This document shows, in pieces, positions 18,169 to 57,570 of a stretch of 64,000 bases of DNA. Under the pieces are notes generated by a model that ran no database searches, was not told the origin of the DNA, and was given only the letters and a program-made list of their open reading frames with translations. Positions within the stretch are counted from its first letter, which is position 1. Each line of letters begins with the position of its first letter. Source of the stretch: Psammoneis japonica. Lineage: Eukaryota. Location: contig QPGO01000150.1 in the NCBI GenBank assembly GCA_008632985.1, forward strand, positions 62,001 to 126,000, given 5' to 3'. The translations under genes and the position numbers were made by a program.

Positions 18169-18736
18169 AGTGATCGAATGATCAAAATTGCATCCGCCTC
18201 CTTTACTGCAACCTATATGGAAGCGAGAGCAATACAGACTTTCTGCTCTTGACACACGGAACGGCGGCAGCTGCGAGTTGTTTATCGTGAACACCTCTAG
18301 ATACCGCAAGGAGCTCCATCCACACAACCTATTCACCAGTTGGTGCATAGGCCCCGATTTGTTCCTGCTCGCCTCTCTCGCGAGCACCCGCTAGCACCTC
18401 AACTCCAGGCAACTTGTCATGACGTAAAAAACTAAACTCATTCAACTATATATAGCCCGGTCGCCTTCACGAACGTACTTTATGACTATTGAGTAGGTTG
18501 CTTTTTAATGCTGTGCTGCCGAGTCCAAGAACTCTGGCTGCTCTGGTCCTTTGTTGCAGAGGAGCAAGCGACAGAAGTGAGCACAAGCGAAATAGAGCTG
18601 TGCCACCAATTAGAACTTTGGAGAGGAGGAACGCCTCTCTATGCGAGTAACTCCTCGTCATGCCAACCAGCACGCAAAAACGGCAAAGACTTCATGATCG
18701 TGGCTGAATAACGATAAGCCCATAACCCAAACTCGA

Positions 18737-18880
18737 CATTTGACTTCGAGTCAAAGTAAGCTAAATGAATAGTGTAAAACGTTAAGTGTCATTTCCACTT
18801 CGACACAGAGACAGCTATATGATTAGTGCAAATCGTTAAGTGTCATTTACACTTCGACACAAAGAAAGCTAAATGCTTAA
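18737..18880. repeat. About 54-bp tandem repeat, about 2.7 copies
   Basis: CGTTAAGTGTCATTT.CACTTCGACACA.AGA.AGCTA occurs twice, with a degenerate partial copy upstream. Confidence 0.8.
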
Positions 18881-19179
18881 CGGCAGTGGTCAGATTTCAA
18901 ATTCTGAGCAATACAGAAATGTCAATGATGAATAAGGATTTTAGATCCCTTCTGCCCTTAATGTCATTATTCCAATGCCACTAATGAATACACAAATGAA
19001 TTTGTATTCCATCCTTTTCGTAAACTTTGATCTATCGGCATTTTCAATACGAGTACGCGATGACAACAATAAAGCATGCTTGTATGTGTCATGGTCATAA
19101 GCTGTAAGGCATACCGTCACATTTGGATTGAACTCGGGGATGTTGGTGTCGAAAGTAGCCATTTGTTTGACATTCGTGA

Positions 19180-21270
19180 TTTTTCATCGCCCACAAATTG
19201 GGATTTCAACTGAGTCGAGTTGATGTTGGACGTGTGCAAAGCACTGCGTTTGATGAAACAATTGAGGGCTCTGGGCTTATGGCATTTTATGCCATGGAGA
19301 CTTAAAATGGTGAATGGGTTGACAATCAAGCCAGTGATCGGGTTTGCCAACATTTCCAAAAATGTGACAACAAAAATTGCATCACTCAACAACCAACAAC
19401 CCCTCAAGAGAAGAAACAAGAAAAGTGATTCCTCTTTGCACTTGAATTAAAAGAGACAACAATGCACAACAAATGTTCAAGAAGGACAAGAAGCTCTTGA
19501 ATGCATGAAACAAGAAGAGAGTCAATGAATCACTCTTGTTTCGAACCTCTTGCCCTGTTCTCTCCTCCATGGTGGTTGGTTGAAAGGTTGGTGGTGGTTT
19601 TTTGTGAGACTTGCAGCTTGATGCATGTTGATGCATGAACAAATGGCCCATGTGTGGTGTCACCTTTGGAATGTGCCACTTGTGGAGCTTGAGTGGACAG
19701 CTCTCTGTGCTCAAGCTTTGTCCGCCAAATGCTCCGTCAAAGTCCAGATGCTGCCCCATCCCACCCAACCATTGAAAAAAAAACAGTTCTTGCAAAATGC
19801 TGTTGCCTGTTTCCCTCTTCCTCTGCAGAGCAGCTCTCTTGGTGACAGTGCCACCCACACACCAGACTGTGCTCAAGAATGCTTTCCAACCTGCCAGCCA
19901 AGACACCCAGCTCGGGGCTGTGTGGGCTCGAATCTCTCTCAAGACACAAGCTGCTGAGCATGTTTCTGGCACTGGCGGCAATGCTGAGCCCTCCTTCCTG
20001 TTTGACTTCCCAGGGGTGTGCCCAGACTGCCTGCATGCTGGCCCAACCACAAGAGTTGCTGTTTTGCCAGTTTTGTCAGCAGGATGTGCCAAGGCTGCTC
20101 TGGCCATGTGTGCCTGGCTGGCACCACAATGCAAAGACAGGTGCGACAGCACTTTCTGCTGTCAGCAAAGAGTGTGAGCTGGCTGGACTGCCCAACCCCA
20201 CACTTCACAGTTCCTTGGCAGCCACTCCAAATCAAGCGCCAGCTTGGGACCAACTGCACCTGGCTGGTTGCAATGCAAAGACAGCTGTGACAGCAATTTG
20301 TGACAACAAGAGAGAGTGTGAGCTGGCTGGGCTCCTGACCCCAGCACAGCCACTTCACAGCCCCTCAGCACTGGCTCCCAATCAAATGCCAACTTGGCAC
20401 CAACAGCCACAAAGCCATTGTTGCAGATCTCTGCACCTGGCCCCTCACACAACATGTGTGGCCTTTGCAAAATGGGCCCCTGGCCAACTGCAGACTCCTC
20501 ATGGCTTGCAACAAGCCACCACAACACAGAGCATTGTGGGGTGAATGCAGCACAGCTTGAGCAAGCAAGCCATGCTGGGAGCACCAAGAGCTGGCTGCTG
20601 TCCTGGAGCTCCATTCAAAGCTGAGCTGGGCTGCTTGACTCCTTGGTGGGTGGCACATGCTTGCTTGGCATCACATTGTTGCCAAGCAGAGCCACATGGC
20701 ATGTGCCCACCATTTGCACCTGCAACAGTGATCCCTGGCCACAAAAAAGCCAACAAAAAGTTGAGCCTGCTTTTGTGGTTGAAGGGTGAAGAAATTGTGA
20801 GTGAGGTTGGGTTCAAGAGTTTGTTGGCAATGCCAAGTGGGCGGCCAAAGAGAGGCACCAAAAATGACTGTGTGAAGTGTCTCTCGCTCATTTCTCAAGA
20901 GGAGCTTGTGCTCATGATGCGGGGTCTGAAGCAAGCACCAGTCAAGAGGACAACAATTCTTTCCCTCTCTGTTCCACCCAAAACACAGCCTTTGAGTCAA
21001 TGTGGTGCTCCTTCAACAATTGATGCACACACTGGGAGGAGCAGCTGTGGAGCCAGGGCAGCAGGCCTGGCAGGGCTTGGCTCACAACCAAGCTGGGCTT
21101 CTCAGCTTGGCAGCACACACTCAGAGTCACATTGTTGCCCTCCTGCAGCTGCAATGTGCCCCACTCTTTGCACCTGCAGCAACCACCCCTGGACCAAAAG
21201 AAGCCAGTGCAACTCTGGCCCTGGTTGCATGGTCAAATTGTGTGTGTGTTCAACTGTCGGAATCCCCTCC
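19180..21270. other. TpA- and CpG-depleted island 2 with an internal repeat of about 144 bp
   Basis: TA is nearly absent and CG is rare. CAATGCAAAGACAG and AGAGTGTGAGCTGGCTGG each recur about 144 bp apart (about 20120-20410). Confidence 0.85.
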
Positions 21271-21981
21271 TTTTTTCCCTTTTCCTTTAAACCGGCCACG
21301 AATATGAAAAAATTGCCGCAAAAACCTTTTCCCATCCTAGAGAAAGCGCAGATTCGGATTTTTTCTGCGCGCAGGCAACGCGAACGAACAATCGAGTGGA
21401 TTTCGCGTTGGTTTGGATACACATTTAAGGACCGGCTAAATGCGCAGTGCGCATTTTTGAGTTTTTGGGTCTCATTTTGCACTAAATGCGCAAAAATGCG
21501 CTACTGCGTAGAAACATACCAGGATTCTACGTGGCGTCACACCTAAACGTTGCAACGCACTCGTGATGAGCTTGCAACTGCAACAGAAGTAATTAGCCCT
21601 CTCTAGAGAGACAAGAAGTGACAGTCATATCATAAAACTCACTGTTACATACATTTACAGCTATCACCTACTCAAGCAAGTGATAGTGCTTGCTGTTCAG
21701 TCGTTCAAACATGCAGATCTCAAGAATGTCGCGTGGGATCTCAGTCACGGTTGGCCGAAGCTTAGCGGCAGCGCGCAGACAGTGCGCGCAGGGTTGGAGG
21801 GAGGCTGTGACGTCATCTATCAGTACTGTATCTACGCAGAATACACGTAGCCAGTTTCAGCGCATAAATGAGCGCAAAACCGGGTTTCGACGAGCGCATT
21901 TAGCCGGTGCTTATACACATTCGAGCAGAGAAAAAACGAGTGCCGTTCCACTCTTGGCGCTTATACGTTCATACAATCACG

Positions 21982-29459: not shown

Positions 29460-30607
29460 CCCGATCTCTTTGTCAAGTGACTGAGACCATATCTGTTTGC
29501 ATAAGTTCACTTCCAACGTATTACTTTCATGTTGACACTACAAGGGCCGTGCTCAGTGCTATGTCTCACCTGCTTTCAATGCATGCTTGCGTTTCTCCGC
29601 TCCCCATGTGCTTGACGGTATCCGGGACTGTTGTGCGGCTTTGATTTCCATGTTCATTAATTCTATTCTAAATTTGTTCAAGAAGATTGTGTGTTTTATT
29701 GCCTCATGGCGCATCCTTGACATCCTTGCACGTCCGGATTTCTGTTTGTTGGCACCCTTTTTGCAGTTGGGGTTTCCAGAGCGACATTGCGAATCGAGCA
29801 GCGAACGACAGAGTGCAAACTTGCAGTCTCAAAAAATCCCCAATAAATATGATTCGCACGTTTCGACGAACAAGTTTCGAACAAACACACCCTGTTGCTT
29901 CAAACGATCCGACGACAAAATGCTCACTCCTCATTTTTCATTCTTGAATTGCAAAAATATTTTCCAGCCTTCTCCCGCTCTTTCTATTTTCTTGGTGTGA
30001 GCAAATTCATTGGTGTTCAGTTTCTTTTCCACAATTCCATTTAACAATATCCGATTTAAACAACGTTTTCATTGCCGCCGGAATGACGCACCATCACCGT
30101 CTCGATTCTCCAATGTTTACAGGATCCAGCATGTGGCATGTGGTTTTTCCTTTGCCCAGAAAAGCAAGAACATCGCAGAAAGAAAGCATCGGCACTCCGG
30201 GCAGAACAACGCTGAATGGACCTAAAGATTCATCCACGCTGGGCTAGTAGGAACACGAACAGGAACAGTTATATTCATCCGATCCCCGCAGTGAGAAGCC
30301 GACGAGCAATGAGTCGAGTCAGCGCGCGACCGATGATTCAAAATCCAGAGCTCTGTGGTGGCGGATTTCAGCTGTTCTGTCGTGCCTCAAAGCACATTAC
30401 TTAATTAACGATAGTCAAAAAACGCAATAATTGAATTCTACCTTCCGCCATCCTCAACTCGCGTGCGACTGACCCACGACCCACGCCACGTACGCGACGG
30501 TGTTGATGCGTGACCTTCAATACCGCCGGCGCTGTTGTTTGTCGACCGCTGCTTCGAGGATCGGCAAGGGCGTTGGGCATTGCATATTGTCGCTGCTATA
30601 ATTCGCC

Positions 30608-32764
30608 ATGTTTTGTTTCTCCAAGTTGAGGAGACCCGTTGTATTGTTTTGTCTTTATGTTTGCTGTTGTTTTACGTCAGTCAAAGCGACACCTCGCGAT
30701 GTGACGAACGTCGACAAACAATCGACCGAATTGTCTTTCCGTGATATTTTCCGTGCTCCAGACTACTTGACTCGTCGATTACAGGACCCGCCACCGCAAC
30801 AAACACCGCTTCGTGTTTGTGGTGAGATCATTGGGACTTCTACTCGGGCAGAAATTAATGAGACACTTGCTCAAATCGGAGCCGGATTCTTTGCCCCCGT
30901 CAGCCCCGAGCTGCAAGCCTTGTTTCAGTCGTTGCATTCCGTCAAGTATGGAATTCAAGCACGCAAGATTTGTACATCTTGCCAAGAGATGGCCGAGTCA
31001 TGGGCTGGGTCTGACTTTGTTACGGATGATTCACCCAATGGCTTTGCCACGTATTGTGGGCCAGATGCGTTTGGATACAATGTCACAATTAGCGGCTTGC
31101 TCCTCGTTCCAATTGACGAAGAGACGGGAGAACTCGTAAAGGGGAGTCTCAAGGTATGAATGACTTTGGCGGAGGTTTTTATTTCACTTGTTTCATTCTC
31201 TGTGAGTCCGCTGAATCGCATAATCTGTTGTTTGTTCAACTCTATGCATAACAAAGACCACCATCTTTGGCCGAACAATTGGTCCCCAGCTACAACGCGT
31301 CTTGTCAGAACGATGGCCTCGAAACATGGCCGATTTGGGACTAAACAACCTAAGCGGACCTGATCTCTCCGCTGCATCTGGCAATCTTTATGATTTGGTT
31401 GCACCAATGGCGGCAGCAACCGCTGGAACAGTTGTTTTGGCTCCAGACAATCTCGGCTTTGGCGAAAGCTATAATGCAACAAAGAGGTAATGAAATGGAG
31501 GCTGAGATAATGGATGTTGAAGTGAAGCACGGCATCTAAACCTGTTGTTTTTCTGTCTTGTTCCTCCACGTTGACCAGTTGGCTCGTAAAGGCGACTCAC
31601 CAGGCATCCGGTTCAGCGTTGCGGTTATTTGCCATGAAATTGCTTGCGAGTGAAACCAGTCAATGCACCGTTTTATCAACAGGAGTCATTACCACGGGGT
31701 ATTCTGCCGGTGGTTATTCGTCCATTGCCGTGGCGTCCGCCATGCGTCAAATGGACAACGCGGATGTTCTAAGCGTATCCGTCGGTGGCGCTCCTACTCG
31801 TCTCAGCTCGGCACATTTAGTAGTGGCAGCAGGCAACATTGATACCGGATTAACGGATGTAGCGTCCCTTCATGGGCTGGTGTCATTGGCCTATTCCTAC
31901 TCATCTACCAATCCAGTCTTGGCCAATACCAATGTGGACGGCCAAAATTACCTTTCGGACGAGTACATCTCGAATGCTACCGAGTGGATCGAAAGCGGAC
32001 TCCGTGCTTCCACTATTGTTGATCTCTTGCCAGAAAATCCGCTTGACATTGTAAACCAAGGCTTGGTTCCGCTCGCCCTGGTGAGTACAGTATGGTCTTT
32101 TTTTTGTGCTTTGCGAATCTACGCCATTCAATCCAAGCTCTTGTCTTTTGCTCTCTCAGGATGCGTATGACAAGAACGAAACCGACATTTGCGTTGCTCA
32201 GATTGAAAACAATGGTACATACGCTACGCTGTGTCAGGTTTTGACCGATAATGACTTGACAGAGGAGCTGCATTCAGCAGATTATCCAGTCTCGTTTTGT
32301 CACAGTCCGGGTGCGTGAAGATGTCGTTGAGTTGTCGTTATGTAGGAAATGAATATCGCTTTGAATCGAATCTCACACATTTCATGCCTTGTGTGTTCGC
32401 GTTCTCTCTTTTTGTAGGGGACTTCTTGGTGCCAATCGAGAATCTACCAGACTTTGACTCCAACCCCGATTTCTTATCCGTATTTGACGCCATTCCAGGA
32501 TTCGCTCCGTCCGGAAATCACGCCGAGGCCGGTGGCTTGTGTTTGATTCCGCTTATTTATCCTTTTGCCAATCCAACCCTAACGGCAATTGAACCAGCTA
32601 CGGAATGTACCACTACTCCCCAACCGACGACGGAACCCAATAATGCTACACCTCCACCTTCATCTTCTCTACCTCCCTCTGGCGCGCCGTCTCTGTCCAA
32701 CTGGAAGCGCCATACCGTACTTGTTTCAGCAATCATTCCCTTGTTCCTAATGTCCGCACTGTGA
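30608..32764 (+). CDS. Secreted alpha/beta-hydrolase (lipase-like), multi-exon, possible GPI anchor
   Basis: Signal peptide, APDNLGFG, nucleophile elbow GYSAGG and FCHSP. Pro/Ser linker followed by a hydrophobic C-terminus. About four GT-AG introns. Confidence 0.75.
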
Positions 32765-32854
32765 GAAAATTGTGATGCTGAAAGCCGATCTCTGCATAAA
32801 TTTGGCTTTAGCATATTTTAAAATTGTTAAGGTACTAACTACATACATACATTA

Positions 32855-34724: not shown

Positions 34725-35029
34725 GATTTTGGTCTTGTAGTGTATGGGCTTTGAATCGAGACGACGTCGTGGTTTGCTTGTTGATTGCAACAACAACAAC
34801 AAAATAACCTTTCTGAAAAATGAGAAAAAAATTCGTGGTTGCTGGCTGTTACTTGTCGGTTTTGTCATTTTGACTGACTAAAATGTTCTCAAAGGTGTCC
34901 GATCACACTGAAATGCGTCGTTGTTATGCGTGGCTGCGTTTGGGAAAATCGAAAACCTCGCAAACACTAACTGTGCTGTTGTAGCTGGACGTAGAGCAGG
35001 TCAGTTTCACTCTCCACAGTCTATCTGGC

Positions 35030-35598
35030 AGAGTAATGTCATGTAAAACAGCCAAAGCACCAAGTCATCAAAATGGGGGTGGCACAGCAGACAGCTGCGT
35101 GCGCACCGCACCTCCTTTGCGAGCACAGCATGATTTTGACAACAAGTCCAGCCAGTGGCAGCCAGTTTGGAAAAACTTTGGCCTTGTGCTTGTGCACATC
35201 AACAGTGCAACTCAATGAAAGAGAGAGCACATTGTCTTGTGCATGTGCATCACACACCACATCAGTGTGCTGTGCAAAAAAAAATCTGTTTTCGAAAGAT
35301 GGCGCTGTGCACAGCAAGTGCAAACTGGGAGTGCGCATGCACAACTGTCAGCCAAAGAGCCAAACCTGGACATGCTGCTGTGTGTTGCACTCTTTCTTTC
35401 TCTCTAGTTACCTCCACGCTGCTTGCCACTGTGCACCCAACAGGTTCAACCATTCCCACACATGCCAGCTTCCAGCCGTCACACATGCCGTGGCACACGA
35501 CATCTTGTGCGCTCAAACAGCAGCAAAGACCAAACATCTCTTACACTCTCCCCAACCAACCTCACTCACACACTCAACACTGAGCTTCTTTGCACCAT
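35030..35598 (-). pseudogene. Hypermutated duplicate of the SKP1 3' end and downstream region (source about 36990-37535)
   Basis: Shared anchors AGAGTAATGTCATGTAAAA, CTCTAGTTACC, TTCAACCATTCC and CAACACT[A/G]AGCTTCTT. Confidence 0.85.
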
Positions 35599-35699
35599 GG
35601 AAAAGACCCAGGTGTTGAAATTGCAGTTGCGCCCTGTTTGGTTGGCTCCAATGGACTCTGTCACATGGGTGGGGCAGAGTTCTGTGAGCAAGCGAGTCT

Positions 35700-36800
35700 G
35701 AAACGATTGACCAGTTCACTCCCCATGGGAGAACACCTGCTGGGACAAACTGTGTGACTCACAGGTCTCATTGGCCCAGAAACCCACCAAAGCAGATGTT
35801 TGACATGTCTGCGTGCTCCTCATTGATTTTTGATTCATGTCTCAACCAAGCCTTGGTGTGCAGAGTCATGAGCACATTGATCCATGGCGCCACCCCCTCT
35901 CAATGTCTTTTTCTTCAAATGTGTTCGGGTGTGGTGTTTTCCCTTTCTTGCTCAACAGCATTTGAGAAATTCAGTCAAGAGCTTGCAACCCCAGAGAAAT
36001 TCTTTCCAATTGAACATTTGAGGGAGATGAGCATCTGTGGGTTGTTTGCTGCCATGGGGAGCGCAGTTGTTTTTGACCTCAAGTTGAGGTCACACAGCGT
36101 GTTGGTGACCAGCTCATTCTGTGCAATGAAAGCCAAGTGAGCACCCTCATCCACAAAGGCCTTGCAAAGCACTCTGGCACAAACAAAATGTTCTTGACAT
36201 CGTTTGGCCTCTGGGTGAATTGTGTTTGTCAAGAAGGAGGGATTGAAGGAAGTTGCTTTTCTCATGCATTTGGCATCAGTGCCTGCATGAGAGCCCGAGC
36301 CCAACCAATCAACCCTGAAGTGCAGAGAGCAGGCTTTTCATGTGTGCAAAATGGTCATCATTTTGGGCAACACTGCCTGTCATGAGACCATGTGGAACAT
36401 TTGGCAGTTTCAGAAGGATCTGCATGAGGTGTTTTGCAGCAGCGGTCTTTCCCGTGGACGATGGAGTCCAGAAAACATGCGAGCAGCGAGAGGAAGCGCG
36501 CCCCCCAGCAAATTCCACAAAGAGCTTGAAATTGTGCTGAAGACCCAACAGGAGAGTCGTCCTTTTCACTGTTGCCTCTTTGAGGAATTTCTCATGCAAA
36601 CTGCTTCATGACGCAACAGTTCCTCCAAGAGTGCCAGCATCAGCCTCATGCAGAGAACAAGCTGCTGTGCAGTGTGAGATTGTGCCCAGGGGGTCTCTTC
36701 CAAGCCAGCAGGCATGGTGTTTTTTCCCAACAGTGAAAAACATACAAGGGCAGCAAGTGCAACAGTGCAACGTGCAACAATTTGTTGATGTGATTGCTGT
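35700..36800 (-). pseudogene. Decayed P-loop NTPase-like ORF in island 3
   Basis: Walker A-like HVFWTPSSTGKT. Fragmented reading frames with no Tyr. Confidence 0.45.
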
Positions 36801-37517
36801 TGCATTGTTGTGACGACTCTTTGTTGGGACGACTGCTCTCTGGGGACGTGTCTGGCAGCAGCTGCTGTTTGATAAATTCTGTCCGTCTGTGCGTCCGAGT
36901 GCCCTTCGACGTACAGTAGAGAGAGTACAGAGTAGGTTTGCTACTCTCTACTCTAGCTCGAACATGGAAGTAGTTTGCTAGCTCTAGAGTAGAGTAATGT
37001 CATGTAAAAGCGCCATAGCAACTCGTCAAGACGGATAGTATGGCAGTATAGTCAGTGACGTGCACACTTCCAATAAGATAGATTTCTGCGCTCCCTTTTT
37101 GGAAACAAGCACAAACAAATGAGCCTTTGGTGCTTGCGCATCAACAACTGTAGCAACCCCACAAAAGAGAGATAGCGCATTATCTTGCGGTATGCATCCA
37201 TAGCCAGCAGCGCACTATATAAAAGGAATACAATAGACTCTAGTACCGTAAGATGGGGTATTGTACACATACAAGCTAGATTGTACACAAGTAGGTAGTC
37301 GAACCAAAACTGGATCTACTAGTATATATTGTATTCTTTCTTTCTCTAGTTACCCTCCATGCTACTCGCCACCATATACTCCAATACTTTCAACCATTCC
37401 AACACGCCTACAAACCGTCGCATATACTGAAGCACACGTCTTGTGTGCGCGCAATAAAAAGCAGCAGAGACCAACTTCTTTCGTATCTTCCCCCCAAACT
37501 CACTCTCACACGCAACA

Positions 37518-38347
37518 CTAAGCTTCTTCACACCACTTGTTTTCTTCACGAACTTGAGCTTCCTCTTCGGGAGAAAAGTCATTGGCAATGTTAAAGGTCG
37601 TACGAATTTCTTCAGGAGTCTTGCCCTTGATCATGCTGGCCACCGTGGCACACGTCAAATCCAACAATGGCTTGATATCCATGTAATTGGCAGCCAAAAT
37701 GAGTTGAAACAAGACGGCTTGTTCAACATCCACAAAGTCGGCATACCACTTTTGAACGACATCCGCCATGACTTGAGACTTGAGGGTTTTTCAATTTCCG
37801 TCATTTGTTCCGTACGATAATGCTTGCAAAAGGCGATTACCTTTTCGAGAATGACAGACGTCACGTTGGGAAGAGGAATTTCCGTACTAGTGCGGTCCTC
37901 ATCCTCGTCATCGTCCTGTTCTTCTTCTGTATGGATAGAGAGAGGAGAGGAGAGGAGGAGAGTGAGTCAGTGCATGACTAAAGCAACACACGAATCAACA
38001 GAAACAACAACTACGCGGTACTGTACCCACCCTCCATCATGCCCTTGACGAGCTCCGACATTTTCGCAACATCCGGAGCAACCTCAAACTTGTCTCCCTC
38101 CTTGCTTACCTAATATGAATGTGAGTGGATATGGATAGGCAACAGAGCGCATATGTGTAAGAAGAAGATAATACTCTTGAGCGGCATTTTTTCGTCACGT
38201 AGAAATCTACGCAGTGTGTACCAGTGGTCCCGATCGATCGCGCCATGGATCCATACACCACTCAAACACACCGCCATCGTCCATACACATACACTCCAAT
38301 CATATAATAACACTTACGAGGTTCACGGTAGTCTCTTCCACATTCAT
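37518..38347 (-). CDS. SKP1: SKP1 (SCF ubiquitin ligase subunit), 3 exons
   Basis: [85 protein letters not shown]. One C is missing in a C-run near 37785 (EKPLKS). Confidence 0.97.
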
Positions 38348-38828: not shown

Positions 38829-39195
38829 TGCACTGTGCTCGAAGAACGAGTGCAAACGAAAGTAGAACGAAGTTCGAAAAGTGAAAATTATGAGATTAAA
38901 TTTTGCTCTGTGATTTTTGGTTTCTCCGAATGAGTTCTCAATGGCCTAAAGCTTCTGTGCTGCTTCTGCAGACAAAAGGCCTTTCGGAGAATGCATTCGT
39001 GACAACAGATTGTCCGGATGCGATTGCCATTGACACGCAAGATGTCAACATCGTCAATCGATCGTATTTGCAATTCTCGACATCCAATCAACTCTGTGTG
39101 ATCGTTCTGTCCTTTGCACGCATCCACGACTGTGGTGCGATTGACACACAAACAACACACAATCACAAACATGCGCGCAACAGTCGCACACTGCA
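38829..39195 (-). repeat. 3' LTR of the gypsy element
   Basis: Ungapped direct repeat of 43187-43553, adjacent to the PPT. Confidence 0.95.
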
Positions 39196-42100
39196 CTCGC
39201 CTCCCAATTGCACATTAGAGTCATTTGTTGAGTGGATTGTTCGACGGACATTGACAGTGTCAACAATGTCTCCACGTTCACTGCATTGTGCCATTGGCAA
39301 TGACTGTTGTTGTTGCAGGCAATGTGGGGCCGTTCCAATTTCCGAATGTCTTTTGAGAGTGACGTTGTTTGTTTCTCACTTAACATGCACACACACAGCA
39401 TTGCGTCGAGCATTCTCATTGACGTTCTTGTTGATGTGAACACAAGGACAATTGTCCTGGAGCAAGTGTTTTTCCTGACATCGATTGTGCACAGCATCGT
39501 GCCCAGCACTTAATGCACGCTCTCAATTGTGGCGTTCACTTGCTTGCTTGTGGATTTCATGCAGTTTGGCGGGCTTGCTTTACATGCCACATTGCTCTGC
39601 TGCACTGCCACGTTTCACAAGTGACAATGAACGATGGTCAAAGACATTGTGACCATTTCGTCTTGACAATCAATCCTGTGATGGTTGTGAATTCCATTGT
39701 GGATTTTTTTTTGCACTTCAACCATCTGTCAGTTGGATTTTAATCGTCATTTGGATGTTTCTTTCTGACATGCCGGTGTCATTTTGTCATTCCGAAGGCA
39801 CTGGTTTCGTGCACTAAGTGGAAAAATGTCCATTTTTCTTTTCTTTTCTTTTTCTAGATCTTTGGCACATCTCGTGTGTCTGCATGATGTGTGTTTTAAT
39901 GTCTTGCCTCGCACATTGTACAATGCAACCGCACGGGTGTTGTGAGATTGTCTTTTGCCAGTGTGAAGTGGACACGTGTGATGCACACCAATCTGTCACT
40001 GTTTTTTCCTAAATCGTCCTTTAAAAAGGCGATTTTGTCCTCATGACATGAGCATTTTTCGATCTCGCTCGCCTCCACGAAAAGTGTTCGCATGACATGT
40101 CGCGTCCGACAATTTGGAGGGAAATGTCTTCATCCCGTTTTAACGGCAGGACATTGTCGTAGGATTCAATTTTCTGTGGCAAGTCGGCTGATCGCGTCTG
40201 TCGTGACAATGTTCACCTTGCCCTCGTTGTGCTCTAATTTGGGACTGAAGTTGTCAACGTATGACTTTGTCCGTTGTGTCTTGTGATCCGTGCATGCACA
40301 AATCTGTTGGCCAAACAGCACATTTCGGAATTTTGTGGGTGTTTTCACTGTGGACAGAAGTTCTTTTTTCCGTTGTAACGCATGATGTTGAAATCCGTGC
40401 ATGATGACAATGCAGTTTTTGATTTGATGTGCTCCACATTTTTGGAGACTTTTCGTTCCGTACTTGCACTTTTGCCGTTGACCTTTGTTGAGGTGAATCT
40501 GGCCAGCATTGTGCAGGAGATCGTTGAGACCACATGTCTCGACAGCAGTGACGCATGACGACGAGATGTCGCAGTGTTCTTTGCGTTTTTCTCATGTTGC
40601 GATTGCTTGAATCGCCTCCATTTTCTTTGTAATCGAATGCATGTCGTTGCTCATGGAAGTCTTCATAGTTTGTTTCAAGTTAAACAGTGAAGGACTTTTG
40701 TTGTCAACCTTCTAAGTGACTGTTCCAGTCGTTTGAATGCCGCACTAAGCTGTCACTTGTGCAGGTGACATTTTGAAGTTACTTTTGTCAGGCACAAACG
40801 ATCACATGCAGTCGTTCTGACAACTTCAAACCTGTTGTGAGTTCACTCAAGTGTTGCACAAAAATGTCTGGGGCTCCACAGATTCTCGTTGGAAGTCCAC
40901 AGCACTCATTTTCTCCCCACGGCATGATTTTCGTGTGAGCACGACGTGTGCTTTTTTCATTTGACATGGTGGCATTCCATGTTTGAATCAAACAGATTGC
41001 ATGCATGAAACGTTCTTGCTTCAATGGCATTTCCTGAACATTGGGCAAAGGATGCACCACCTGTGTGAACCTTGTGCCAAGCTTCTGAGTGTCGGGTGCG
41101 GTCGAACTCGACCTGTTTTCTTTGGACAATGAGTCTCAGAGCGACTCATTCAGAGCAATTTCATTCTTGAGACTTCAATCTTTCACAACAGGTCAAACTC
41201 CTTTTGATTGGACACCTCCAAAGACTGTGATGGGAGAAGGTTCTCACGCGTCGTGGAATCACGTCAGATTTTCCACGATGAGATCCACTGATGCTTCCCA
41301 CACATTCGTCTGAGGAGCTTTTCAAAAAGATTTCAACCTCTTGAGAAGAAGATTGAGTTGGTTGTGTTCATTTGGGTCAGATGCATCGCCGCAGTTGTCA
41401 CTTGATTGGGGTCGATGGCATGACAATGTGAGTCGAGGACCATTGGTTCCGTCACCAACTCCATTCACGGCGTCATGTTTTTCAATGTGATCGGTTTTCA
41501 GCTTGAAAACATCGGCATCGAAGAGTGTGCGAACATTCTTCACAGGGCAATTGCTTCTTCCCATTTGATTTCTTCAATTGCGTGGTCCAACATGACATGA
41601 TTGCAAGACTGGACATTGAGTCGCGTCCCATGATCACATTGCTCGACCTTGAAGAAGATTTCGTGTCATCGACATGTGCTGTTTGAATGTCAGCACGTCT
41701 TAAATTTGCATGGTGAGAACTGAATTTGGTTTCTGCTGTCAGTCGTAAAGAGCTCACCCTTGGTTTCCCAAGTTTTTTGGTGGCGGATGTTTTGTGTTCT
41801 CGACTTTGCACGATTTTGAGTAAAATCATGGGCTGATGATGTTCTTTGTCGAGAGAACAGGCAGATGCTTTTTTCTCTCCTTTCCCAAGGAAGTGTTCGT
41901 GTAAATGATGACTCCTGGACTGGCGTGAATCATTTCTGCCTTTTTTCTGGGCTTCCCAATGTCCAGCAAAGCAAACAATTCGTGAATGGACCCAAATTGT
42001 TCTTCGGATTCACTCTGGATCATCCGATCACATTGGTGTTTTTCTTCACTGAGGGTGTCAGAATCTGATTTTTTGCCCTCATGCTCTTTTTCTTTGTTCG

Positions 42101-43186
42101 AGGAACTCGCTTTGAGCATTTTTTGAACCGCCTGATCAATCATGACGTTCAACTCTTTTTTGCGAGCGGCATTTTCGTTGTCGCGACGCGACCGCGTGCG
42201 ATTGCCATTTTAAACGGCGCATTTTTGGGTCTCTTTCAGAGTCACCCTTGCACTCTTTTGCCAGTTCATTTTCAGAATGGCTCCAATCCGTGATGTGGGC
42301 ATTCTTTTTTCAAAGATTGGACCTGGCATTCACTTTGGATTGTTCAGGTGCCGTGTGGGAGACCATTTTTGGAACCAAATTTGGAGCCATTTTGGTTTTG
42401 GAATCAATTCCACTGTCAGAGCCTGATTTGACATGGTTTGTTGTCACAGACATCATGAACGACTTCTAGACGACTCAAAACTCAATCAGCTCATCAAGGA
42501 TGAGTTCCAACAGTTGGTTGTTTTGGACAGCAGACTGAGGCTGCCATCCTTGCGGTGCGAGTGACAGCCAATGGCTCACGACTCGGTTTCCCGCTAGATT
42601 CAACTTAGAATCCATTGAAGGGTTGCATGGACGCTCTTCATTGACCTCTTGGGTCCAACAGAGGCTTTCTTGCTGTCAAGCAGCTCTGGTTTCTTCAGAT
42701 CGTTTCGAAAACAACAACTCCGATTCTGAAGTGCAGTTCCTGGAAAGACATGAGATGAGAGACTCTTGAGGTGCTTTCCAACGGTTCCTTCTTGCTCTTT
42801 GGATCGAGGCTCGTTGATTCGGTCTCTAAAAACTCTCCAATGGTCTCTCCTTGCAAAGTAGATGCATTTCTCGGATCTGATCGACTCGGGACTTGCATTC
42901 TCTGCAACCATGACTTGGTGTAGATTTTTTGACAATGCGGTGCACTTGTGGAGTCCTTGATCCTTGGATGCTTGGAATGGACCGCACTAGAACGAATCTT
43001 GTCATTTGCTAGACGAAAAACAGCGTTCCATCTTGAGGCACTGCTCGGATTGAGCTTCTTCCGCTCGGAAATCGATTCTGGCAGAACTGATGCGATTCGT
43101 CCCTGTTCACAGAAGAATTTGCAAAGGCACATTAGGTAAAATTTTCATTTTCCGTGCTTTTTACCTTCTGTGGTGTGTGTGCACAA

Positions 43187-43553
43187 TGCACTGTGCTCGA
43201 AGAACGAGTGTAAACGAAAGTAGAACGAAGTTCGAAAAGTGAAAATTATGAGATTAAATTTTGCTCTGTGATTTTTGGTTTCTCCGAACGAGTTCTCAAT
43301 GGCCTAAAGCTTCTGCACTGCTTCTACAGACAAAAGGCCTTTCGGAGAACATGTTCGTGACAACAGATTGTCCGGATGCGATTGCTGTTGACACGCAAGA
43401 TGTCAACATCGTCAATCGATCGTGTTTGCAATTCTCGACATCCGATCAACTCTGTGTGATCGTTCTGTCCTTTGTGTGCATCCACGACTGTGGTGCGATT
43501 GACGTGCAAACAACACACAATCATAAATGTGTGTGTAACAGTCGCATGCTGCA
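43187..43553 (-). repeat. 5' LTR of the gypsy element
   Basis: Ungapped direct repeat of 38829-39195. Confidence 0.95.
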
Positions 43554-44793
43554 GCACCCTCCAAAAGCAGTGCGCTCTTTGCTGGTCCACCAGACATGAC
43601 AATGATGCTGCTGCTTTTGTTCCTCTTTCCCTCACTCACCCCCAAGAGATTCTTGCTCATTGTTGCTGTTGTTGTTTCAACAAGAGCGCTCTCTGGCACC
43701 ACTTCATCCAAAGAGAGCAGCGCCCCCCTCTGTCCCCTGTTTTGTTGTGTGTGCGCTGGACCCACCCTCCCAGCAGCTGCAAATGTGTCGTGCAGTCAAG
43801 TGGTTGTTGTTTGCCACCATGAACATGTGCAAGACTTGCACCCATTCTTGAAATCCAGCGCCTTTCTGAACTCTGCTGTGCAAGCACAGCCAGCCACCAG
43901 GTTTCTTGCTGGTGCTGACACCACTCACAAAAGAGCTTCTTGTTCACTCGACCCCCTCTTCCTGTTCTTTGTCAAGGAGAAGATTTGTGCCAATGTCATG
44001 TCAAGAGCATTGCTGTGCACACATGGCCATTGTGCAAGGTGCTTCCAGCATGCTGTTCCAGCCTTGTTGTGGACAAACCCCAAACCAACAAAACTCTGCA
44101 GCACACTCAAGGCAAAAGGCTGTCTCTCTCCTCCTTTGAAGCCCAGGCTCTCTTTTCCATCATTTTGTTGCACACTTCTTGTCACAAAAACAACTCAAGA
44201 AGTGCAGAGAAGCAGATGATGGCTGCACCAAAAACGTCAGCACAACAAGAGTGCAGCGCCATTCCACCCTGCTGCACCAGCTCTGCCAAAATGCCAGCCA
44301 GCATTTTTCTAAATGAAGGTGCCTCCAGAATGATGCCAGAGGTTCTTGTTGCTTCCCCCAGCAACACTCCTCTGTGGCTCTGCCTCTCATCAGCACTCCA
44401 ACAATGCTTTGGCACTGCTCCAGTGTCCAGTGGCTCCTGGCAGGAAAGCAAGCTGCAAGCAACAAGATGGTTGAGCAGCTGGGTGATCACCCAGCATCGC
44501 CCCTCCTGGCACCCAGACTCAGTCAATGTGGGTGGAGCTAACAGCAAAAGTGAAAAGCAGGTTTGTGCCTCTCTTTGCTGAGCAGATGACAAAACAAGAT
44601 GGGCAAGGAATGCAGCATCATCAAAGAGGCTTTTGAAAAATGAGACACATGGCAGAGCAACAGCGGGAAAAAAGTTGAACAGAAGGACAAAAAAAGTGGC
44701 ATCTTGGCACTCGCATGAAGTCAAGAAAACAGTGATTCTTTGCTTTTTCAGCAAACAAGCCCTTTGGGGGGGGGGGGGGCTCACCATGCTCAT

Positions 44794-44995
44794 GTGGAAG
44801 ATGAGAAATGTCCAGCCTGCCATTTGTGTGCTGATGCTGTTGCCACATGGTGTCCGTGCATGACGAAGGATTGTGCGGCGTGGTGGTGAACAGCACTGCG
44901 CTTGTGTGGAAGATGAGAAATGTCCAGCCTGCCATTTGTGTGCTGTTGCTGTTGCCACATGGTGTCCGTGCATGAAGGATTGTGTGACGTGGTGG
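44794..44995. repeat. About 112-bp tandem duplication
   Basis: GTGGAAGATGAGAAATGTCCAGCCTGCCATTTGTGTGCTG at 44794 and 44906. Confidence 0.9.
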
Positions 44996-45199
44996 CAAAC
45001 AGCACAAAGTGCACAGCAAAGTCATTGCAGGAGGTCCTGGCCCCCTCACAACTCTTGTGTGAGTCAATGCCAAAATCACAGCACATCTAAATGCACGAAC
45101 TCTGGTCTAAACCCAGATCTTGTGCAACAAACTGTTGCATTCCTGCAACTGATCTTGGTGCTGAGTCACACAGTCAGTCACTCAGTCAGCCACTCAGTC

Positions 45200-45750
45200 A
45201 ACAAATGCAGCAGAAACTTTGGCATGATCAAATTGTGCTCTTCTGCAGCCTGCTCTTTGATGCCCTGCCCTGCCAACCAACCTTGCAAGCAGTTGGCTCC
45301 AATGATGGCCACAACCCATGCAAACAATTTCTGTGACAACATTGGCACTCAGTGTCTTGACAAAAAGAGTGAGCCACTCTGCCGCTCTTTTTCTTGTTGG
45401 GTCTTGTCTTGCTCCAAAGCAACAACACTTTGTTGTCTTCCAACAAATTGCTTGTTGTCACTTGCATCAATGTCAGAAGTCAAACCATTCAAGATTGGCA
45501 CATGCTTGCAGCCCACATCCTGCAATGGCGGTCCTTGTTGGTGCTGTTTCGGAGCGGAGCTTTTGGCAGCTTGACGAAAGCCTCCGGCACTTGCCTTGGC
45601 AGCTGCTGTGGCATGCTGCTGCTTTTCATTGTCACTTCCTTCCGCTGCTGCTTCTCACTCCAATGGTGCCTCTTGGCTCACTTGTCCATGGCAATTTTGG
45701 AGAATGATTTGAGTTGATGCATGTGGCAGCTCTTGGTGCCTTTGAGCACT
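45200..45750 (-). pseudogene. Hypermutated duplicate of the 3' coding end of gene 47305-49015 (source about 47310-47835)
   Basis: Shared GAAACTTTGGCATGAT, TGCCAACCAACCTTGCAAG, TCAAACCATTCAAG and TTTTGGCAGCTTGACGAAAGCCT. Confidence 0.92.
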
Positions 45751-45910
45751 TCACATTTGCATGAGAAAGTCTCAAAGGTGTCATTTGTCCAGTTGAAAAA
45801 TGACTGTTTCAGGTCATTTTGGGGGTGTTCCAGGACCCGCGGGTCGACAAGCAAGAACACTCGACTTCGGCGGGTTCTCATTCGTCGGTGAACGGCATCT
45901 GTCGTGCACC

Positions 45911-46924
45911 ATGTCTTCGTCCCCCGAGCAACCGAGCAATGTCAACCAGTTCAATGTCAACGACCAAGGCAACGTCAACCAGATCAATGTCAGCGACCAA
46001 GGCAATGTCAACATGATCAAGGTCCAAATTTGCAAGTGCCAGTGGTTTTCAGACCAGCCGACTTGGGCGAAAGTCCTGGAAATGTCTTTGTTTGTTGTTG
46101 CGGCAACAGGCTCCACCGTTGCTGGTGTTGTCCTTGGCGGTGATGACAGCAACGGTGACGAATCGTTGCCATCCCCTGGCAAGTCTTCACCAACGCCACC
46201 GTCAATGACAGCAACTCCAAGTGTCTCACCGACGCCACGGAATGCAGAAGGACCACCGGTGCGTACACCGTCTTGGCATCCAACGCCGGTGCCTGCCCAT
46301 GCTCCTACATTGCCAATGCCCACGCCGTCTCCGACGCGTTGGCCCACCCGCTCACCAACGGCGCCGCCAACATCGCAGACACCAACCCCAGCACCCACGT
46401 CTTTGCCTGCTGTTGCCATTCCACCAGCAAACACATTTGTAGTCGGACCGGCACTGCCCAGTGCCAGAACTTTTCCCTTTGCCTTTGGTGGGGGCAATGT
46501 AGGTGCAACCGTTGGTAACGATTGGAAAACAAGTGAATTTCCCGGTGCGCCATCTGGTGTCACCAATGCACCCTTGCTGTTTTCGGGGTCATTCGAGAAC
46601 GGGAATTGGGTCGCCGGGGGGCTCGGATCATGCAGCAAAGACGGATGTTACGGTGCTTTGACCAAGCCATTTGAAATCGTCCATGCCAATGGTCTCACCA
46701 CTGCTCGCATCATTGGGATTGCCTTTGGTGACGACTCTGATAATGATGACTTTGCACTTTTGGCGGCACAAGGACAATCGCTGTTTACGGCTCCGTTGAC
46801 CATCCCACCCTTCTCCACGCAGGTCACTTTTCTCACTGGTTCATATGAAAATATGATACCTGGCACCCATCTATTGGATGAAGAGCTGTCCGGCTTTTCC
46901 CTCGAAGTGAGGCCAGCATTGTAA
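45911..46924 (+). CDS. Single-pass membrane protein with Pro/Thr stalk, partly TpA-depleted
   Basis: Open frame with NVN..NV.DQG repeats, a TM segment, a PT stalk and a globular C-terminus. Confidence 0.6.
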   Translation: MSSSPEQPSNVNQFNVNDQGNVNQINVSDQGNVNMIKVQICKCQWFSDQPTWAKVLEMSLFVVAATGSTVAGVVLGGDDSNGDESLPSPGKSSPTPPSMTATPSVSPTPRNAEGPPVRTPSWHPTPVPAHAPTLPMPTPSPTRWPTRSPTAPPTSQTPTPAPTSLPAVAIPPANTFVVGPALPSARTFPFAFGGGNVGATVGNDWKTSEFPGAPSGVTNAPLLFSGSFENGNWVAGGLGSCSKDGCYGALTKPFEIVHANGLTTARIIGIAFGDDSDNDDFALLAAQGQSLFTAPLTIPPFSTQVTFLTGSYENMIPGTHLLDEELSGFSLEVRPAL

Positions 46925-47304
46925 AAAATGGAAGTAAGCTAGAGCACTTCCCGATACAATAGTGTGTCACATATGCTTTTTCTGTTCTCCTATATACCAG
47001 TTGTGTTGTTTAAGGCGACCATTGGTGCACCAAAAGATTGCCGCGATCCTGAAAGGGAAACCGATACTCCCACTAACAGCAAGAAAAAAACCCTAGGAAT
47101 CCACCGAGGCATGACTGTTGGGCTGACTGTCACGACCAAGCCACTTTTGACTGGAAATGAGATGATCCCGGCAGGACTCTGACAAACTAGCAATGAAACT
47201 CTTTAGACTCTCTAGACACGAGATTGCACGTCGCAAGACTATCGTAGTAGACACTAGCTCGCAATCATAACCATCTCAATAAGCTCTCTCTCTCTCTCTC
47301 TATT

Positions 47305-49015
47305 TCAATACAATGGAAACTTTGGCATGATTAAATCTCGTTCTTCTGCCGCTTTCTTGATACCCTGCCATGCCAACCAACCTTGCAAGTAGTTGATTCC
47401 CATGACCAAGACCCGCGCCGACAATTTCTGTAACCACCTTGGTACTCGGTGTCTCGACAAGAAGAATAAACCACCACCGTCTCTTTTCTTGTTGCTGAGT
47501 TTCGTCTTGTTCCAAAAGGAACGCTTCATCCTCCTCTAACGAATTGCTTGTCGCTTGCATCATGTCGGAAATCAAACCATTCAAGGTTGACACGTACTCG
47601 TAATCGGCATCCCGTAAGGGTTGTCCTTGTCGACACTGTTCCGGAATGGCATTTTTGGCAGCTTGACGAAAGCCTTCAACACTCGCCTTGGCGGCGGCTG
47701 TGGCATGCTCCTGCTGCTGCTGCTTCTTTTCGTTGGTTCCTTCTTGTTCCAACAAGGCCTCTTCGTATACTTGTCCGTAATAATTACGGAGTGATTCGAG
47801 TTGATCCATGTATAGCGTTCGTGCCTTTTCAGCAATACTCAAGAGAATGGAATGAACGTTGCTACTACTACCGCTTTCCTCTTCCAATAAGCACTGACGT
47901 GCGTTTTCCAAAATGGCCGTGATTGTCTCACCAAAGTGTTCAAGAGGCGGTCTTGTTGTTGCTTCATCATCACTTTCTTCTGCAACATGTAGCCAAATTG
48001 CTTCTTGTTGTTGTTTTAATTCGTCCAGTTTCATCCATGCGCGTGACAATACCTCGTCTACTCGATTGATTTGTGGTGGTTTTTGTTGATTAGATTCATC
48101 CTTGTCATTTTCTTCTGCGGTAGTCGACACGGCAATCGGTGGTGGTTCTTCTTGTGCAGCTTGCTCTTGTCGTACTATCGAATCGGAAGTGTCCTCTGAC
48201 GTTGTTTCTGTTTTATCTAAAGAGGGGTCCATCGTGGCGTCTTGCTCTTGAGCAGTTTCATCTCGTTCCACTTGCGATTCTTCTTGTTCCAACTCTAATG
48301 AAAACTGACACGTCAATCCGTTGGAGAGTGATGCATAAATTTCACGCAGTAACTTTGGAAACGCCTCCAATTCAACCACAGGAGATTCATTCTCGGTATT
48401 TTGAATCTCCAAAAGAACTTCTTTTACCAATTCTTGATACTCCTTTATGGAGGATACAATTTCAAGTCTTGATACAAGTTCGGGCGTCCAGTGCTGAAAA
48501 TCATGCTGGACGACATGATTCATGGCATCGTCTATGTACTCTTGATTGTTTTTCATCAAGACGGCAACTAGTTTTGGTTTGCCCAAGCCACCCGCAGTGA
48601 CACGTCGTTGAATACCTCGTAGGAGGGGTTGTAATTGCTGTTGCGAGTCGTCGTCGTTGTATGATATGAGCAACACGTCACAAAGCATACCCATGGTTTC
48701 CAGTACAGCATCTCGATTACTTCCAACAAACTTGTCACTAATAATGGTCGATGAATCATCCAAAGGAACAATGGCAACGACAGTCGTTCCGTCTACCATG
48801 TCAATGCTTCCAATGGAAACATACTTTTTTTCTTTTTCTTGAAGAGTACTTCGAGTAGTTGTTTCGCCTCCATGAGGGACGACTCCCCAAAATCGTGACA
48901 GACTTGGTCGTTTCGCTGTAGCGTCAACAAGTGATGTATGCAAGCATAATGTGATGAAAAAGAAAAGGACGAGAACAACCGTGGATGCAAGAAACAAGTT
49001 GTTGTTTGACATCAT
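47305..49015 (-). CDS. Uncharacterised protein with signal peptide, acidic middle and C-terminal GINYLQGWLAWQ...MPKFPLY
   Basis: Long ORF with an apparent 2-nt frameshift near 47480. The decayed duplicate at 45200-45750 keeps the continuous frame across that site. Confidence 0.7.
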
Positions 49016-49907
49016 GGTCGTGTCGTCATGATGGTGCAAAAATTTTGTGAGGTCGCAAACGATAAAACCGCGCGAATGAAGATCGCGCATTCTCGATCTT
49101 TTGACACGCGTCATTATGACATCACAATCAGAACTCAAATTGAATGATGTATCTATGAATAAATATTAAAGATTATTCATTCGGCACGTGCAACAAACAG
49201 GCATTGTTTCGCCAACATAACAAGAAGCAAACAAGCCGCCGAGAGTGAGTGTGTTTGCTTGTGTTGGCATTGTTGATTAGCGCCAAGTGATTGCAAGCGT
49301 AGCACACACAAGAGAGAAAGAGAGACGAGTTATTGAATTTTGTATTCGCTTTTGATCAGGGTGTCTCTGCATCACTGTCAAGGCAAAAAAAAGACACAAA
49401 ACATCAAAAAATCATTCCGAGCGTATCTCTACGTAGAACTTGTACTGATTTCTACACAAACCAAGACAGACAGAGGTGAGTGGAATGCTTTTCGTAGCCC
49501 TACACATGGTGAACATCACACCGATCAATGCACAACGTCCGTGTAAGAAGATGTATGGTACTATTGTTTCTCTTGTGTTTTATTGCTTTGGCGCTCTGTC
49601 ATTTGCCGTTCCATACATTCACTATGATGATGTCGACAATAACAACATGCCGACGAACTCAGCTTGGCGTGAATCGCATTGGCGGCAAATCAGAAATTCC
49701 CTCTTTTCGATGCATTATATGTTTTCATACAATTGTTACAGGAACTAGGAATTTCGTGTCTTTTGTGTTTCTTGTCACGGACTCAATCAAGTCCCGTTTC
49801 GTTTCGCTCACGATTTGCGTGATGTTTTTGTTCTGACACGACGTTGTTTGATCTCAGGCAGACTTTTACCACTCGTAAACGCGTACTCTTTCTGACACAC
49901 ATAAATC

Positions 49908-57312: not shown

Positions 57313-57570
57313 TCCAGCTCCAGGTGGGACCTCGCACTGCTGCACTGTGACATCAACAGTTTTTTGGATTGCGATGCGTTCCAGCTCTGGGTGGGACCTT
57401 GCACTGCTGCACTGTGACATCAACAGTTTTTTGGATTGCGATGCATTCCAGCTCTGGGTGGGACCTTGCACTGCTGCACTGTGACATCAACAGTTTTTTG
57501 GATTGCGATGCGCCCCAGCTCTGGGTGGGACTTCGCACTGCTGCACTGCGGCATCAACAGTTTTTTGGAT
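57313..57570. repeat. 67-bp tandem repeat, 4 copies, with dispersed copies near 57700, 59340 and 63700 (inverted)
   Basis: Unit TCCAGCTCTGGGTGGGACCTTGCACTGCTGCACTGTGACATCAACAGTTTTTTGGAT... starts at 57313, 57380, 57447 and 57514. Confidence 0.95.

Follow-up and report, generated by a model that had tools for sequence, protein, structure and literature searches.

The closest process described so far is the regional hypermutation of TpA dinucleotides in the chlorarachniophyte B. natans. In mutation-accumulation lines of this alga, 231 of 302 new mutations fell in two integrated viral regions; 230 of these 231 were A to G or T to C changes, all 230 of them at TpA. Another 124 TpA-depleted clusters are present elsewhere in its genome, and the enzyme put forward as a candidate is an ADAT2-like deaminase (Mettrop et al., bioRxiv 10.64898/2026.01.13.699255). 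A second system for comparison is repeat-induced point mutation (RIP) of ascomycete fungi, in which regional transitions in a dinucleotide context degrade duplicated, mobile or inactive DNA and form compositional islands. The present report deals with a 64-kb stretch of the genome of the diatom Psammoneis japonica (contig QPGO01000150.1; hereafter the window), in which the 3' end of the gene for SKP1 is present twice, once at the gene and once inside an island that has lost nearly all of its TA dinucleotides.

Five such islands, all sharply bounded, make up ~20 kb of the 64 kb, or about 32 % of the window. Their observed/expected ratio (o/e) for TA is 0.01-0.1, as against ~0.6 outside, and that for CA plus TG is 1.6-1.9, while CpG o/e is 0.09-0.6 in the islands and ~1 outside. 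In absolute numbers, 59 TAs are left in 20.2 kb of island sequence versus 1691 in the 39.9 kb outside, a depletion of ~14-fold. TAs outside the islands have a mean spacing of 23 bp and a maximum spacing of 154 bp; inside, TA-free runs of up to 1840 bp occur. We hold, at a probability of roughly 0.7, that this diatom genome contains sharply bounded domains in which TpA has been hypermutated to TpG or CpA, and that the island beside SKP1 is one of them. Copy number and island content were judged from the 64-kb window and from contig depth.

In the portion of the B. natans account on which this comparison draws, the changes are A:T to G:C transitions, almost all of them at TpA, give TpG or CpA depending on the strand and are confined to discrete regions (Mettrop et al.). 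The diatom changes are likewise A:T to G:C transitions in discrete regions, with TpA as by far the main target. The clusters of both organisms are TpA-depleted and enriched in CpA and TpG, those of B. natans being mostly unannotated, and a contrast in rate of the order of 100- to 1000-fold would be common to both, the value for the diatom being inferred from a single pair of long terminal repeats (LTRs). The host here is a stramenopile, and depletion is near saturation (TA o/e 0.01-0.1), compared with a Rho of 0.45 in the region of B. natans derived from a nucleocytoplasmic large DNA virus. Instead of integrated viral regions, the targets are a single-copy pseudogene unit, a host gene fragment and an LTR element. 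Pfam scans of the open reading frames (ORFs) of the islands revealed no recognisable virus. Co-depletion of CpG and a bias of the surviving TAs toward TTAA, CTAA and CTAG are seen in the diatom and are not mentioned in that portion of the B. natans account. De novo mutations were recorded in B. natans, whereas the diatom case is known from static sequence, on which it appears to be the same kind of regional hypermutation and not RIP. Full-text literature searches gave no report of a TpA-hypermutation signature in diatoms. As TpA-targeted hypermutation has so far been described in one preprint and for one chlorarachniophyte, a diatom signature at saturation suggests that it is widespread in algae of the stramenopile-alveolate-Rhizaria group.

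The duplicated 3' end of SKP1

The features of the locus, in window coordinates, are the following.

35030-35598, minus strand: SKP1 3'-end copy in the island, comprising the last 5 codons and ~520 bp downstream; TA o/e 0.15; stop codon TAG changed to CAG
35045-36872, no strand: TA-depleted island beside SKP1; 4 TAs in 1.83 kb, CpG o/e ~0.27, CA/TG o/e 1.6-2.2, single-copy depth
35774-36683, minus strand: pseudogene whose relative is P0146, an uncharacterised P-loop-like protein; reading frame broken by frameshift(s) and stops; CAY or TGY now at 6 of 7 Tyr codons
36873-36989, no strand: spacer between the island and the gene-linked copy; TA density normal
36990-37535, minus strand: gene-linked copy, made up of the final 5 codons of SKP1 and its 3' flank; TA o/e 1.12
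37518-37966, minus strand: SKP1 C-terminal exon (Pfam Skp1, E=2.7e-28), in two frames in the window with a shift near 37784

An earlier note on this DNA had taken 35030-35598 for a copy of 36990-37535, and both blastn and global alignment bear this out. When the window was compared with itself by blastn, 37301-37535 matched 35357-35597 with 72.4 % identity (E=1e-24), a value that rose to 87 % when purines and pyrimidines were collapsed. A global, transition-tolerant alignment of 36985-37540 with 35025-35603 yielded 525 aligned columns, again with 72.4 % identity, in which 102 transitions, 43 transversions and 85 gap columns were present. The copies start 1961 bp from each other, and the intact copy lies ~1.4 kb away from the island copy.

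Read from gene to island, 37 A>G and 31 T>C changes are found among the 102 transitions. The 40 aligned TAs of the gene-linked copy read TG (18), CA (13), CG (1), TA (4) or something else (4) in the island; conversely, none of the 76 TG or CA dinucleotides of the gene-linked copy reads TA in the island copy. This asymmetry of 31 versus 0 (binomial p=9.3e-10) has no counterpart in three control pairs with both members outside the islands, which are symmetric (5 versus 10, 1 versus 4 and 5 versus 4). CpG has decayed as well, 8 of the 16 CpGs of the gene-linked copy being TG or CA in the island. The observations of the earlier note that the gene-linked copy keeps its TAs, that the island copy has lost most of them and that just one of the two copies was hit thus hold, the gene-linked copy showing no TA deficit. 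The four sequence examples given there were all recovered in the alignment, among them the change of the SKP1 stop from TAG to CAG, which on the plus strand is CTAAGC to CTGAGC.

The contrast with RIP that the earlier note had drawn stands with respect to the type of mutation, the dinucleotide outcome and the symmetry between copies. RIP changes C to T at CpA and thereby makes TpA, while TpA is destroyed here and CpA and TpG are made. It mutates both copies of a duplication, unlike the process seen here, which spared one copy in each of two gene/island pairs (31 versus 0 and, in the second pair described below, 15 versus 0). Finally, RIP acts on repeats and its hosts are fungi, whereas the sequences affected in the diatom include islands that are single-copy by contig depth, and most island sequence has no partner in the window.

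The same differences could be read in the opposite direction, the gene-linked copy having gained TA through RIP-type C to T changes at CpA and the island copy having stayed near the ancestral state. On such a reading, from island to gene, 43 of 124 CpA cytosines would have undergone C>T, and the TA o/e of the gene-linked copy, at 1.09-1.12, is indeed at the top of the range: its flank has the highest value among 14 gene 3' flanks (1.09 versus 0.34-0.88). The adjoining spacer sequence at 36801-36989 is not duplicated and is as TA-rich as the gene-linked copy (o/e 1.0); the high value of the latter is therefore probably a matter of local composition. RIP enriches TA, whereas the islands are free of it well past any duplicate. 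As the SKP1 stop must be ancestral, the opposite direction is also contradicted at coding sites, and the Tyr codons of two island pseudogenes have been lost, not gained. We consider this reading very improbable.

The shift in the SKP1 frame lies at 37784-37787. Compared with the window, an RNA-like contig (X2, depth 819) carries an additional base after 37784 and a T>C difference at 37787. These two differences restore the frame (...EIEKPLKSQV...) and are absent from the DNA contig of X1. The discrepancy could reflect an allele, a paralogue or an assembly error common to X1 and the window.

Direction of change

The direction from TA to TG or CA, as proposed in the earlier note, is supported by agreement among the SKP1 stop codon, the Tyr codons of two pseudogenes and the copies of an LTR family. 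In 75 of 80 related SKP1 loci the motif WCEE was found, and in all 75 the stop comes exactly one codon later, as in the gene-linked copy; 43 of these relatives use TAA, 20 TAG and 12 TGA. With the stop at the same position in every readable relative (75 of 75), the CAG of the island is derived, by T to C at a TpA. Polarising the SKP1 3' region with an outgroup, as the earlier note had proposed, was thus successful for the stop codon and failed for the sites in the untranslated region (UTR), as alignment with the 80 metagenome SKP1 loci, the best of which has 93 % amino-acid identity, was limited to the final ~42 coding bases and none of them supplied a UTR that could serve as an outgroup.

Protein-coding remnants within the islands point the same way. 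At the 7 positions at which P0146 has Tyr, the codons of the related pseudogene in the SKP1 island are TTT, CAT, CAT, CAC, TGC, CAC and CAT, so that 6 of 7 are exactly what a change of TA to CA or to TG gives. A second pseudogene, in the island at the start of the window (ORF 5376-5837, minus strand), is a remnant of a ~160-aa nucleoside deaminase of the TadA/guanine-deaminase-like type with homologues down to E=2e-30, 13 of the 19 homologues found having been aligned with it. It has His, His and Cys where the homologues have near-invariant Tyr, Tyr and Tyr/Phe. Its catalytic HAE reads HAK, and its N-terminus is garbled. The sole homologue carrying an organism name comes from a Roseobacter metagenome-assembled genome and is thus bacterial. 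This deaminase belongs to the same superfamily as the enzymes proposed to mutate TpA, yet it is a victim here and not a working gene.

The island beside SKP1

The borders of the SKP1 island are sharp, to within ~130 bp. The left border lies ~15-20 bp inside the duplicated fragment and the right border ~120 bp short of the gene-linked copy; TA-free stretches of 361 and 1201 bp occur in between. Two stretches, 35147-35601 and 35673-37393, are represented in independent DNA contigs (X1), which deviate from the window by 2 and 4 letters, respectively; contig depth over the island (~53-66) is the same as on the flanks (~56). This shows the island to be real and single-copy. An artefact of miscalled modified bases in a long-read assembly, or selection against TA, was considered as the source of the depletion and is hardly credible. 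Small indel differences between the window and the independent contigs do suggest an assembly that was imperfectly polished, but the same contigs reproduce the island sequence, each piece deviating by 1-4 letters. Selection, for its part, would have to act on DNA that is non-coding or pseudogenic, and a ~14-fold depletion with such sharp borders exceeds what selection on composition could bring about.

An ORF of the island (35978-36337, minus strand) matched one uncharacterised protein (E=3e-9). P0146, a 318-aa protein encoded on a 350-kb contig, is a member of the cluster of this protein and an intact relative of the pseudogene. It aligns to 36683-35931 (E=1.9e-33) and to 36178-35774 (E=3.9e-19), with a change of frame and in-frame stops. 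P0146 carries a Walker-A-like motif, PPSTGKT; no Pfam family above threshold and no relative with a solved structure were found for it, and a lenient Pfam scan of the ORFs of the SKP1 island gave no match either. In an atlas look-up with a single ORF of the pseudogene, the nearest entries were clusters of P-loop/AAA-type ATPases, several of them viral (score 0.92, 135 shared features), which is a weak lead and not a finding.

Read on the minus strand, the island is a dead gene, complete from near the start codon onward, to which the SKP1 3' fragment is joined at the end. The borders of the island are roughly the ends of this unit, and the targeting of an inserted or silenced unit would fit them as well as the dependence on region or chromatin suggested in the earlier note. 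Terminal inverted repeats and target-site duplications were sought around the island and none was convincing. Tandem duplication of the entire 1961-bp unit was rejected as its origin, as the spacer part matches neither the body of SKP1 nor the left flank.

A second gene/island pair

A comparable arrangement was found further on in the window and involves the two features below.

45204-45725, minus strand: fragment within an island, copied from the final ~170 codons of the gene at 47300-49165 and frameshifted; 0 TA
47307-47812, minus strand: its progenitor, inside the intact 621-aa ORF 47300-49165

The 17 TAs of the gene copy read TG (6), CA (9) or something else (2) in the island, where none is kept; the asymmetry is 15 versus 0, and TA o/e in the gene copy is 0.54. 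Likewise, 20 of the 28 CpGs of the gene copy are TG or CA in the island copy. In both pairs together, 46 of 57 gene-copy TAs have become TG or CA. A search for homologues of the 621-aa gene gave one weak match (E=5e-5) and no usable protein outgroup.

The pairs have their geometry in common: in each, the 3' end of a gene on the minus strand recurs in the island as a direct copy of ~520-570 bp, which lies ~2.0-2.1 kb downstream from the progenitor, and 1.4-1.6 kb of unrelated sequence lies between the copies. Insertions with very long target duplications would give such a picture, as would the reuse of a terminator by an incoming gene. Homology between the inserts, 35599-36989 and 45726-47306, was not above background. 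What the two pairs add to mutation-accumulation data is that the same host sequence was destroyed at one place and spared 1.4 kb off.

Such pairs bring to mind a trigger with RIP-like logic, in which a duplication of at least ~500 bp would set off a mutator that spreads over neighbouring silent DNA, the copy in an expressed gene being protected. That the host fragments of both islands are direct duplicates of ~520-570 bp of gene 3' ends ~2 kb away speaks for it, as do the high copy number of the LTR element and the internal repeats of two other islands. Most island sequence, however, has no partner in the window. The homologies between island and normal sequence number just three (the two gene fragments and the LTR), and the islands of the window do not resemble each other above background; targeting can therefore do without homology, at least within the window. 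The islands at 35-37 kb and 44-46.6 kb are both at single-copy depth. Moreover, the pseudogene part of the SKP1 island, of which the window contains no second copy, shows the same degree of depletion (1 TA in 1.2 kb) as the duplicated part, and one copy was wholly spared, unlike in RIP. Sensing of duplications is on balance an unlikely explanation.

TpA-poor islands across the window

Besides the island beside SKP1, the window contains four islands.

1-5785, no strand: TA-depleted island running off the start of the window; TA o/e 0.04-0.05; contains a 750-bp tandem duplicate and the deaminase pseudogene
19449-21287, no strand: TA-free island of 1840 bp; CpG o/e 0.09
39040-46350, no strand: composite island of a patchy LTR element (TA o/e 0.03-0.27, CpG nearly normal) and 2.8 kb of single-copy sequence (TA o/e 0.05, CpG o/e 0.38)
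57193-64000, no strand: TA-depleted island running off the end of the window, with internal direct and inverted repeats

The islands include a high-copy LTR-type element, a deaminase pseudogene whose one relative with an organism name is bacterial, and a pseudogene of unknown family joined to a host fragment. As TAA and TAG cannot occur without TA, the islands are filled with long spurious ORFs (119 of at least 90 aa in ~23 kb), and they encode no Tyr. A Pfam search with these 119 ORFs gave a weak RT_RNaseH match and a sub-threshold deaminase match only. The islands thus defeat homology searches and gene callers, but their dinucleotide signature is easily screened for in other genomes. Among 500-bp windows, none of island composition was found in 258 kb around SKP1 in the 80 related metagenome loci, a result that is silent on islands elsewhere in other diatoms.

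Two pairs of repeats within islands are young: the tandem copies at 836-1582 and 1583-2332 and the inverted copies at 59067-59597 and 63469-64000 are 98 % identical and differ by 14 and 8 transitions, respectively, and by no transversion. LTR and island-island pairs reach 97-100 % identity when purines and pyrimidines are collapsed.

Change after insertion in an LTR element

The LTR-type element of the composite island offers a comparison of a different kind, between its two repeats.

38835-39195, plus strand: left LTR of the high-copy LTR-type element
43193-43553, plus strand: right LTR, differing from the left one by 27 transitions and 1 transversion

At insertion the LTRs of an element are identical, and the differences between them consequently arose in place. 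All transitions are at dinucleotides derived from TA or CG, the classes being CA/TG doublets (8), CA/TA (4), TA/TG (2), CG/TG (4) and CA/CG (3). In a slightly trimmed realignment the numbers were 8 CA/TG doublets, 5 with TA on one side and 6 with CG on one side (versus 8, 6 and 7). The doublets match what the independent resolution of one ancestral TA would give, CA in one LTR and TG in the other. Four TAs survive in both LTRs, compared with 19 CpGs, from which it follows that TpA was lost far faster than CpG and than anything else changed. This young pair, in which most CpGs are intact, thus is a built-in clock, in which loss of TpA is much faster than loss of CpG and the latter faster than the rest. 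Decay of CpG by methylation and deamination is present beside the loss of TpA and does not account for it. Deamination of 5-methylcytosine (5mC) operates in the same islands (CpG o/e 0.09-0.6) and has the same products, TG and CA; TpA loss is beyond its reach.

The summed contig depth of the element is 7,000-20,000, versus 56, so that other copies of the family could be consulted. At 104 places these have T or A and the window C or G; at 35 it is the other way round. Among the 20 in-element variant sites listed (from 40 of 187 entries), 8 read TA in other copies against TG or CA in the window, and the opposite holds for 2. The interior was searched through 25 minus-strand ORFs among the 54 ORFs listed, which gave one weak RT_RNaseH match and no other.

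The first ~140 bp of both LTRs (38835-38980 and 43193-43340) retain the same four TAs, and the remainder has lost nearly all. With the patchy LTRs and an interior TA o/e of 0.03-0.27, there seems to be local protection within the targeted element.

The LTR pair also bears on the idea that the pseudogene and the SKP1 fragment were edited elsewhere, as RNA, complementary DNA, extrachromosomal or viral DNA or at another locus, and were inserted afterwards, the island borders being the junctions. The position of the left border, within ~20 bp of the end of the duplicated fragment, agrees with this idea, and the viral P-loop ATPase clusters among the atlas neighbours of the pseudogene ORF are a weak lead in its favour. 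Nevertheless, the SKP1 fragment comes from the gene next door, for which a local origin is simplest, and the LTR pair accumulated the same classes of change after its insertion. Both strands are affected at random over short distances, a poor fit with a single-stranded intermediate edited once. In addition, de novo changes in integrated DNA were recorded in B. natans (bioRxiv 10.64898/2026.01.13.699255). Editing ahead of integration is, in our estimation, quite unlikely.

Character of the mutation process

The order of TG and CA outcomes along the SKP1 pair is random (18 TG and 13 CA in 16 runs; runs test, P=0.56), that of the second pair is if anything alternating, and neither strand-coordinated tracts nor domains of TG-CA skew were seen in the islands. 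ADARs are not known from outside animals. Hyper-editing by ADAR and editing by APOBEC of animal retroelements resemble the present case in that they leave clusters of deaminase-type transitions in mobile DNA. They are unlike it in that their tracts are strand-coordinated and precede integration, whereas in the diatom both strands were hit at random, in single-copy DNA and after insertion. ADAR is stated to prefer a 5' U (cited in the Discussion of bioRxiv 10.64898/2026.01.13.699255).

Adenines of TpA show A>G in 33 of 83 cases, compared with 13-19 % in other contexts. Among the 59 residual TAs of the islands, TTAA accounts for 12 (5.3-fold enriched), and CTAA and CTAG are enriched 2.7- and 2.1-fold; ATAC, GTAC and ATAT are depleted, to 0.1-0.26-fold. 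This small sample (n=59) suggests that TA between a purine on the left and a pyrimidine on the right may be converted faster than TA in the inverse setting, which would be a preference of the mutator for flanking bases.

CpG decay and 5mC are linked. The depletion of CpG is thus an indirect sign that the islands may be cytosine-methylated.

Several observations count against regional TpA hypermutation as the explanation for the islands. The 31 UTR sites of the SKP1 pair are polarised by asymmetry and analogy alone. With the highest TA o/e of 14 flanks, the gene-linked copy could contain a minority of derived TAs. A>G changes are also in excess outside TpA in both island copies, at ApA and GpA (51 of 276 versus 21 of 258), so that either the specificity for TpA is below absolute or the alignments are imperfect. 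Each of the two gene/island pairs arose from a duplication that spans 500 bp or more, so that duplications may have acted as a trigger, and the left border of the SKP1 island, so near the end of the duplicate, would equally be expected if the segment had been mutated before insertion.

A possible mechanism

On the reading of regional TpA hypermutation, which we favour, the T:A pairs of TpA are converted to C:G within bounded domains, giving TpG or CpA; the rate would exceed background by orders of magnitude, and hardly any TA is left in the end. The 1.8-kb domain by SKP1 is one dead gene unit, made up of the P-loop-like pseudogene and the 570-bp duplicate of the SKP1 3' end. The host-derived SKP1 fragment was mutated with the rest of the domain and its progenitor, ~1.4 kb away, spared. 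The agent might be an enzyme acting on DNA in place, either an adenine deaminase or a thymine-modifying enzyme with specificity for TpA; because TpA is self-complementary, the two cannot be told apart from sequence. Its target would be a silenced, probably 5mC-methylated chromatin unit and not a sequence with a homologous partner. Host sequence was mutated inside the unit and spared inside the gene, from which we infer that targeting is by locus or unit and not by sequence or foreignness.

A more general scheme, an 'inverse RIP' common to diatoms and chlorarachniophytes, can be put forward tentatively, at less than even odds. In it, a programmed system of DNA-acting enzymes would be directed to silenced chromatin of the size of a transcription unit, irrespective of homology or foreignness, and TpA would disappear there more than 100 times faster than in the background. 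The unit would irreversibly lose all of its Tyr codons and all TAA and TAG stops, even where it consists of silenced genes and gene fragments of the host itself, and epigenetic silencing in these algae would precede a scheduled genetic destruction. The SKP1 duplicate would serve as an internal control provided by nature, with location and not sequence as the deciding factor.

Neighbouring genes and transcripts

The run X2, one of three runs from a single sample, is RNA-like, as its contigs have GT..AG joints. It gives almost no cover on the islands, which was not used as evidence of silence. A PRORP gene neighbours SKP1; all of its homologues with an organism name are from diatoms (Fragilaria, Nitzschia, Seminavis, Fistulifera, Attheya and others), with identities of up to 48 %. 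An atlas look-up agreed with a diatom source, and long ORFs poor in introns likewise fit one. Most large ORFs in the window are uninterrupted, though splicing occurs: an RNA-like contig corresponds to a plus-strand gene at 30590-32832 with four GT..AG introns of 79-107 bp.

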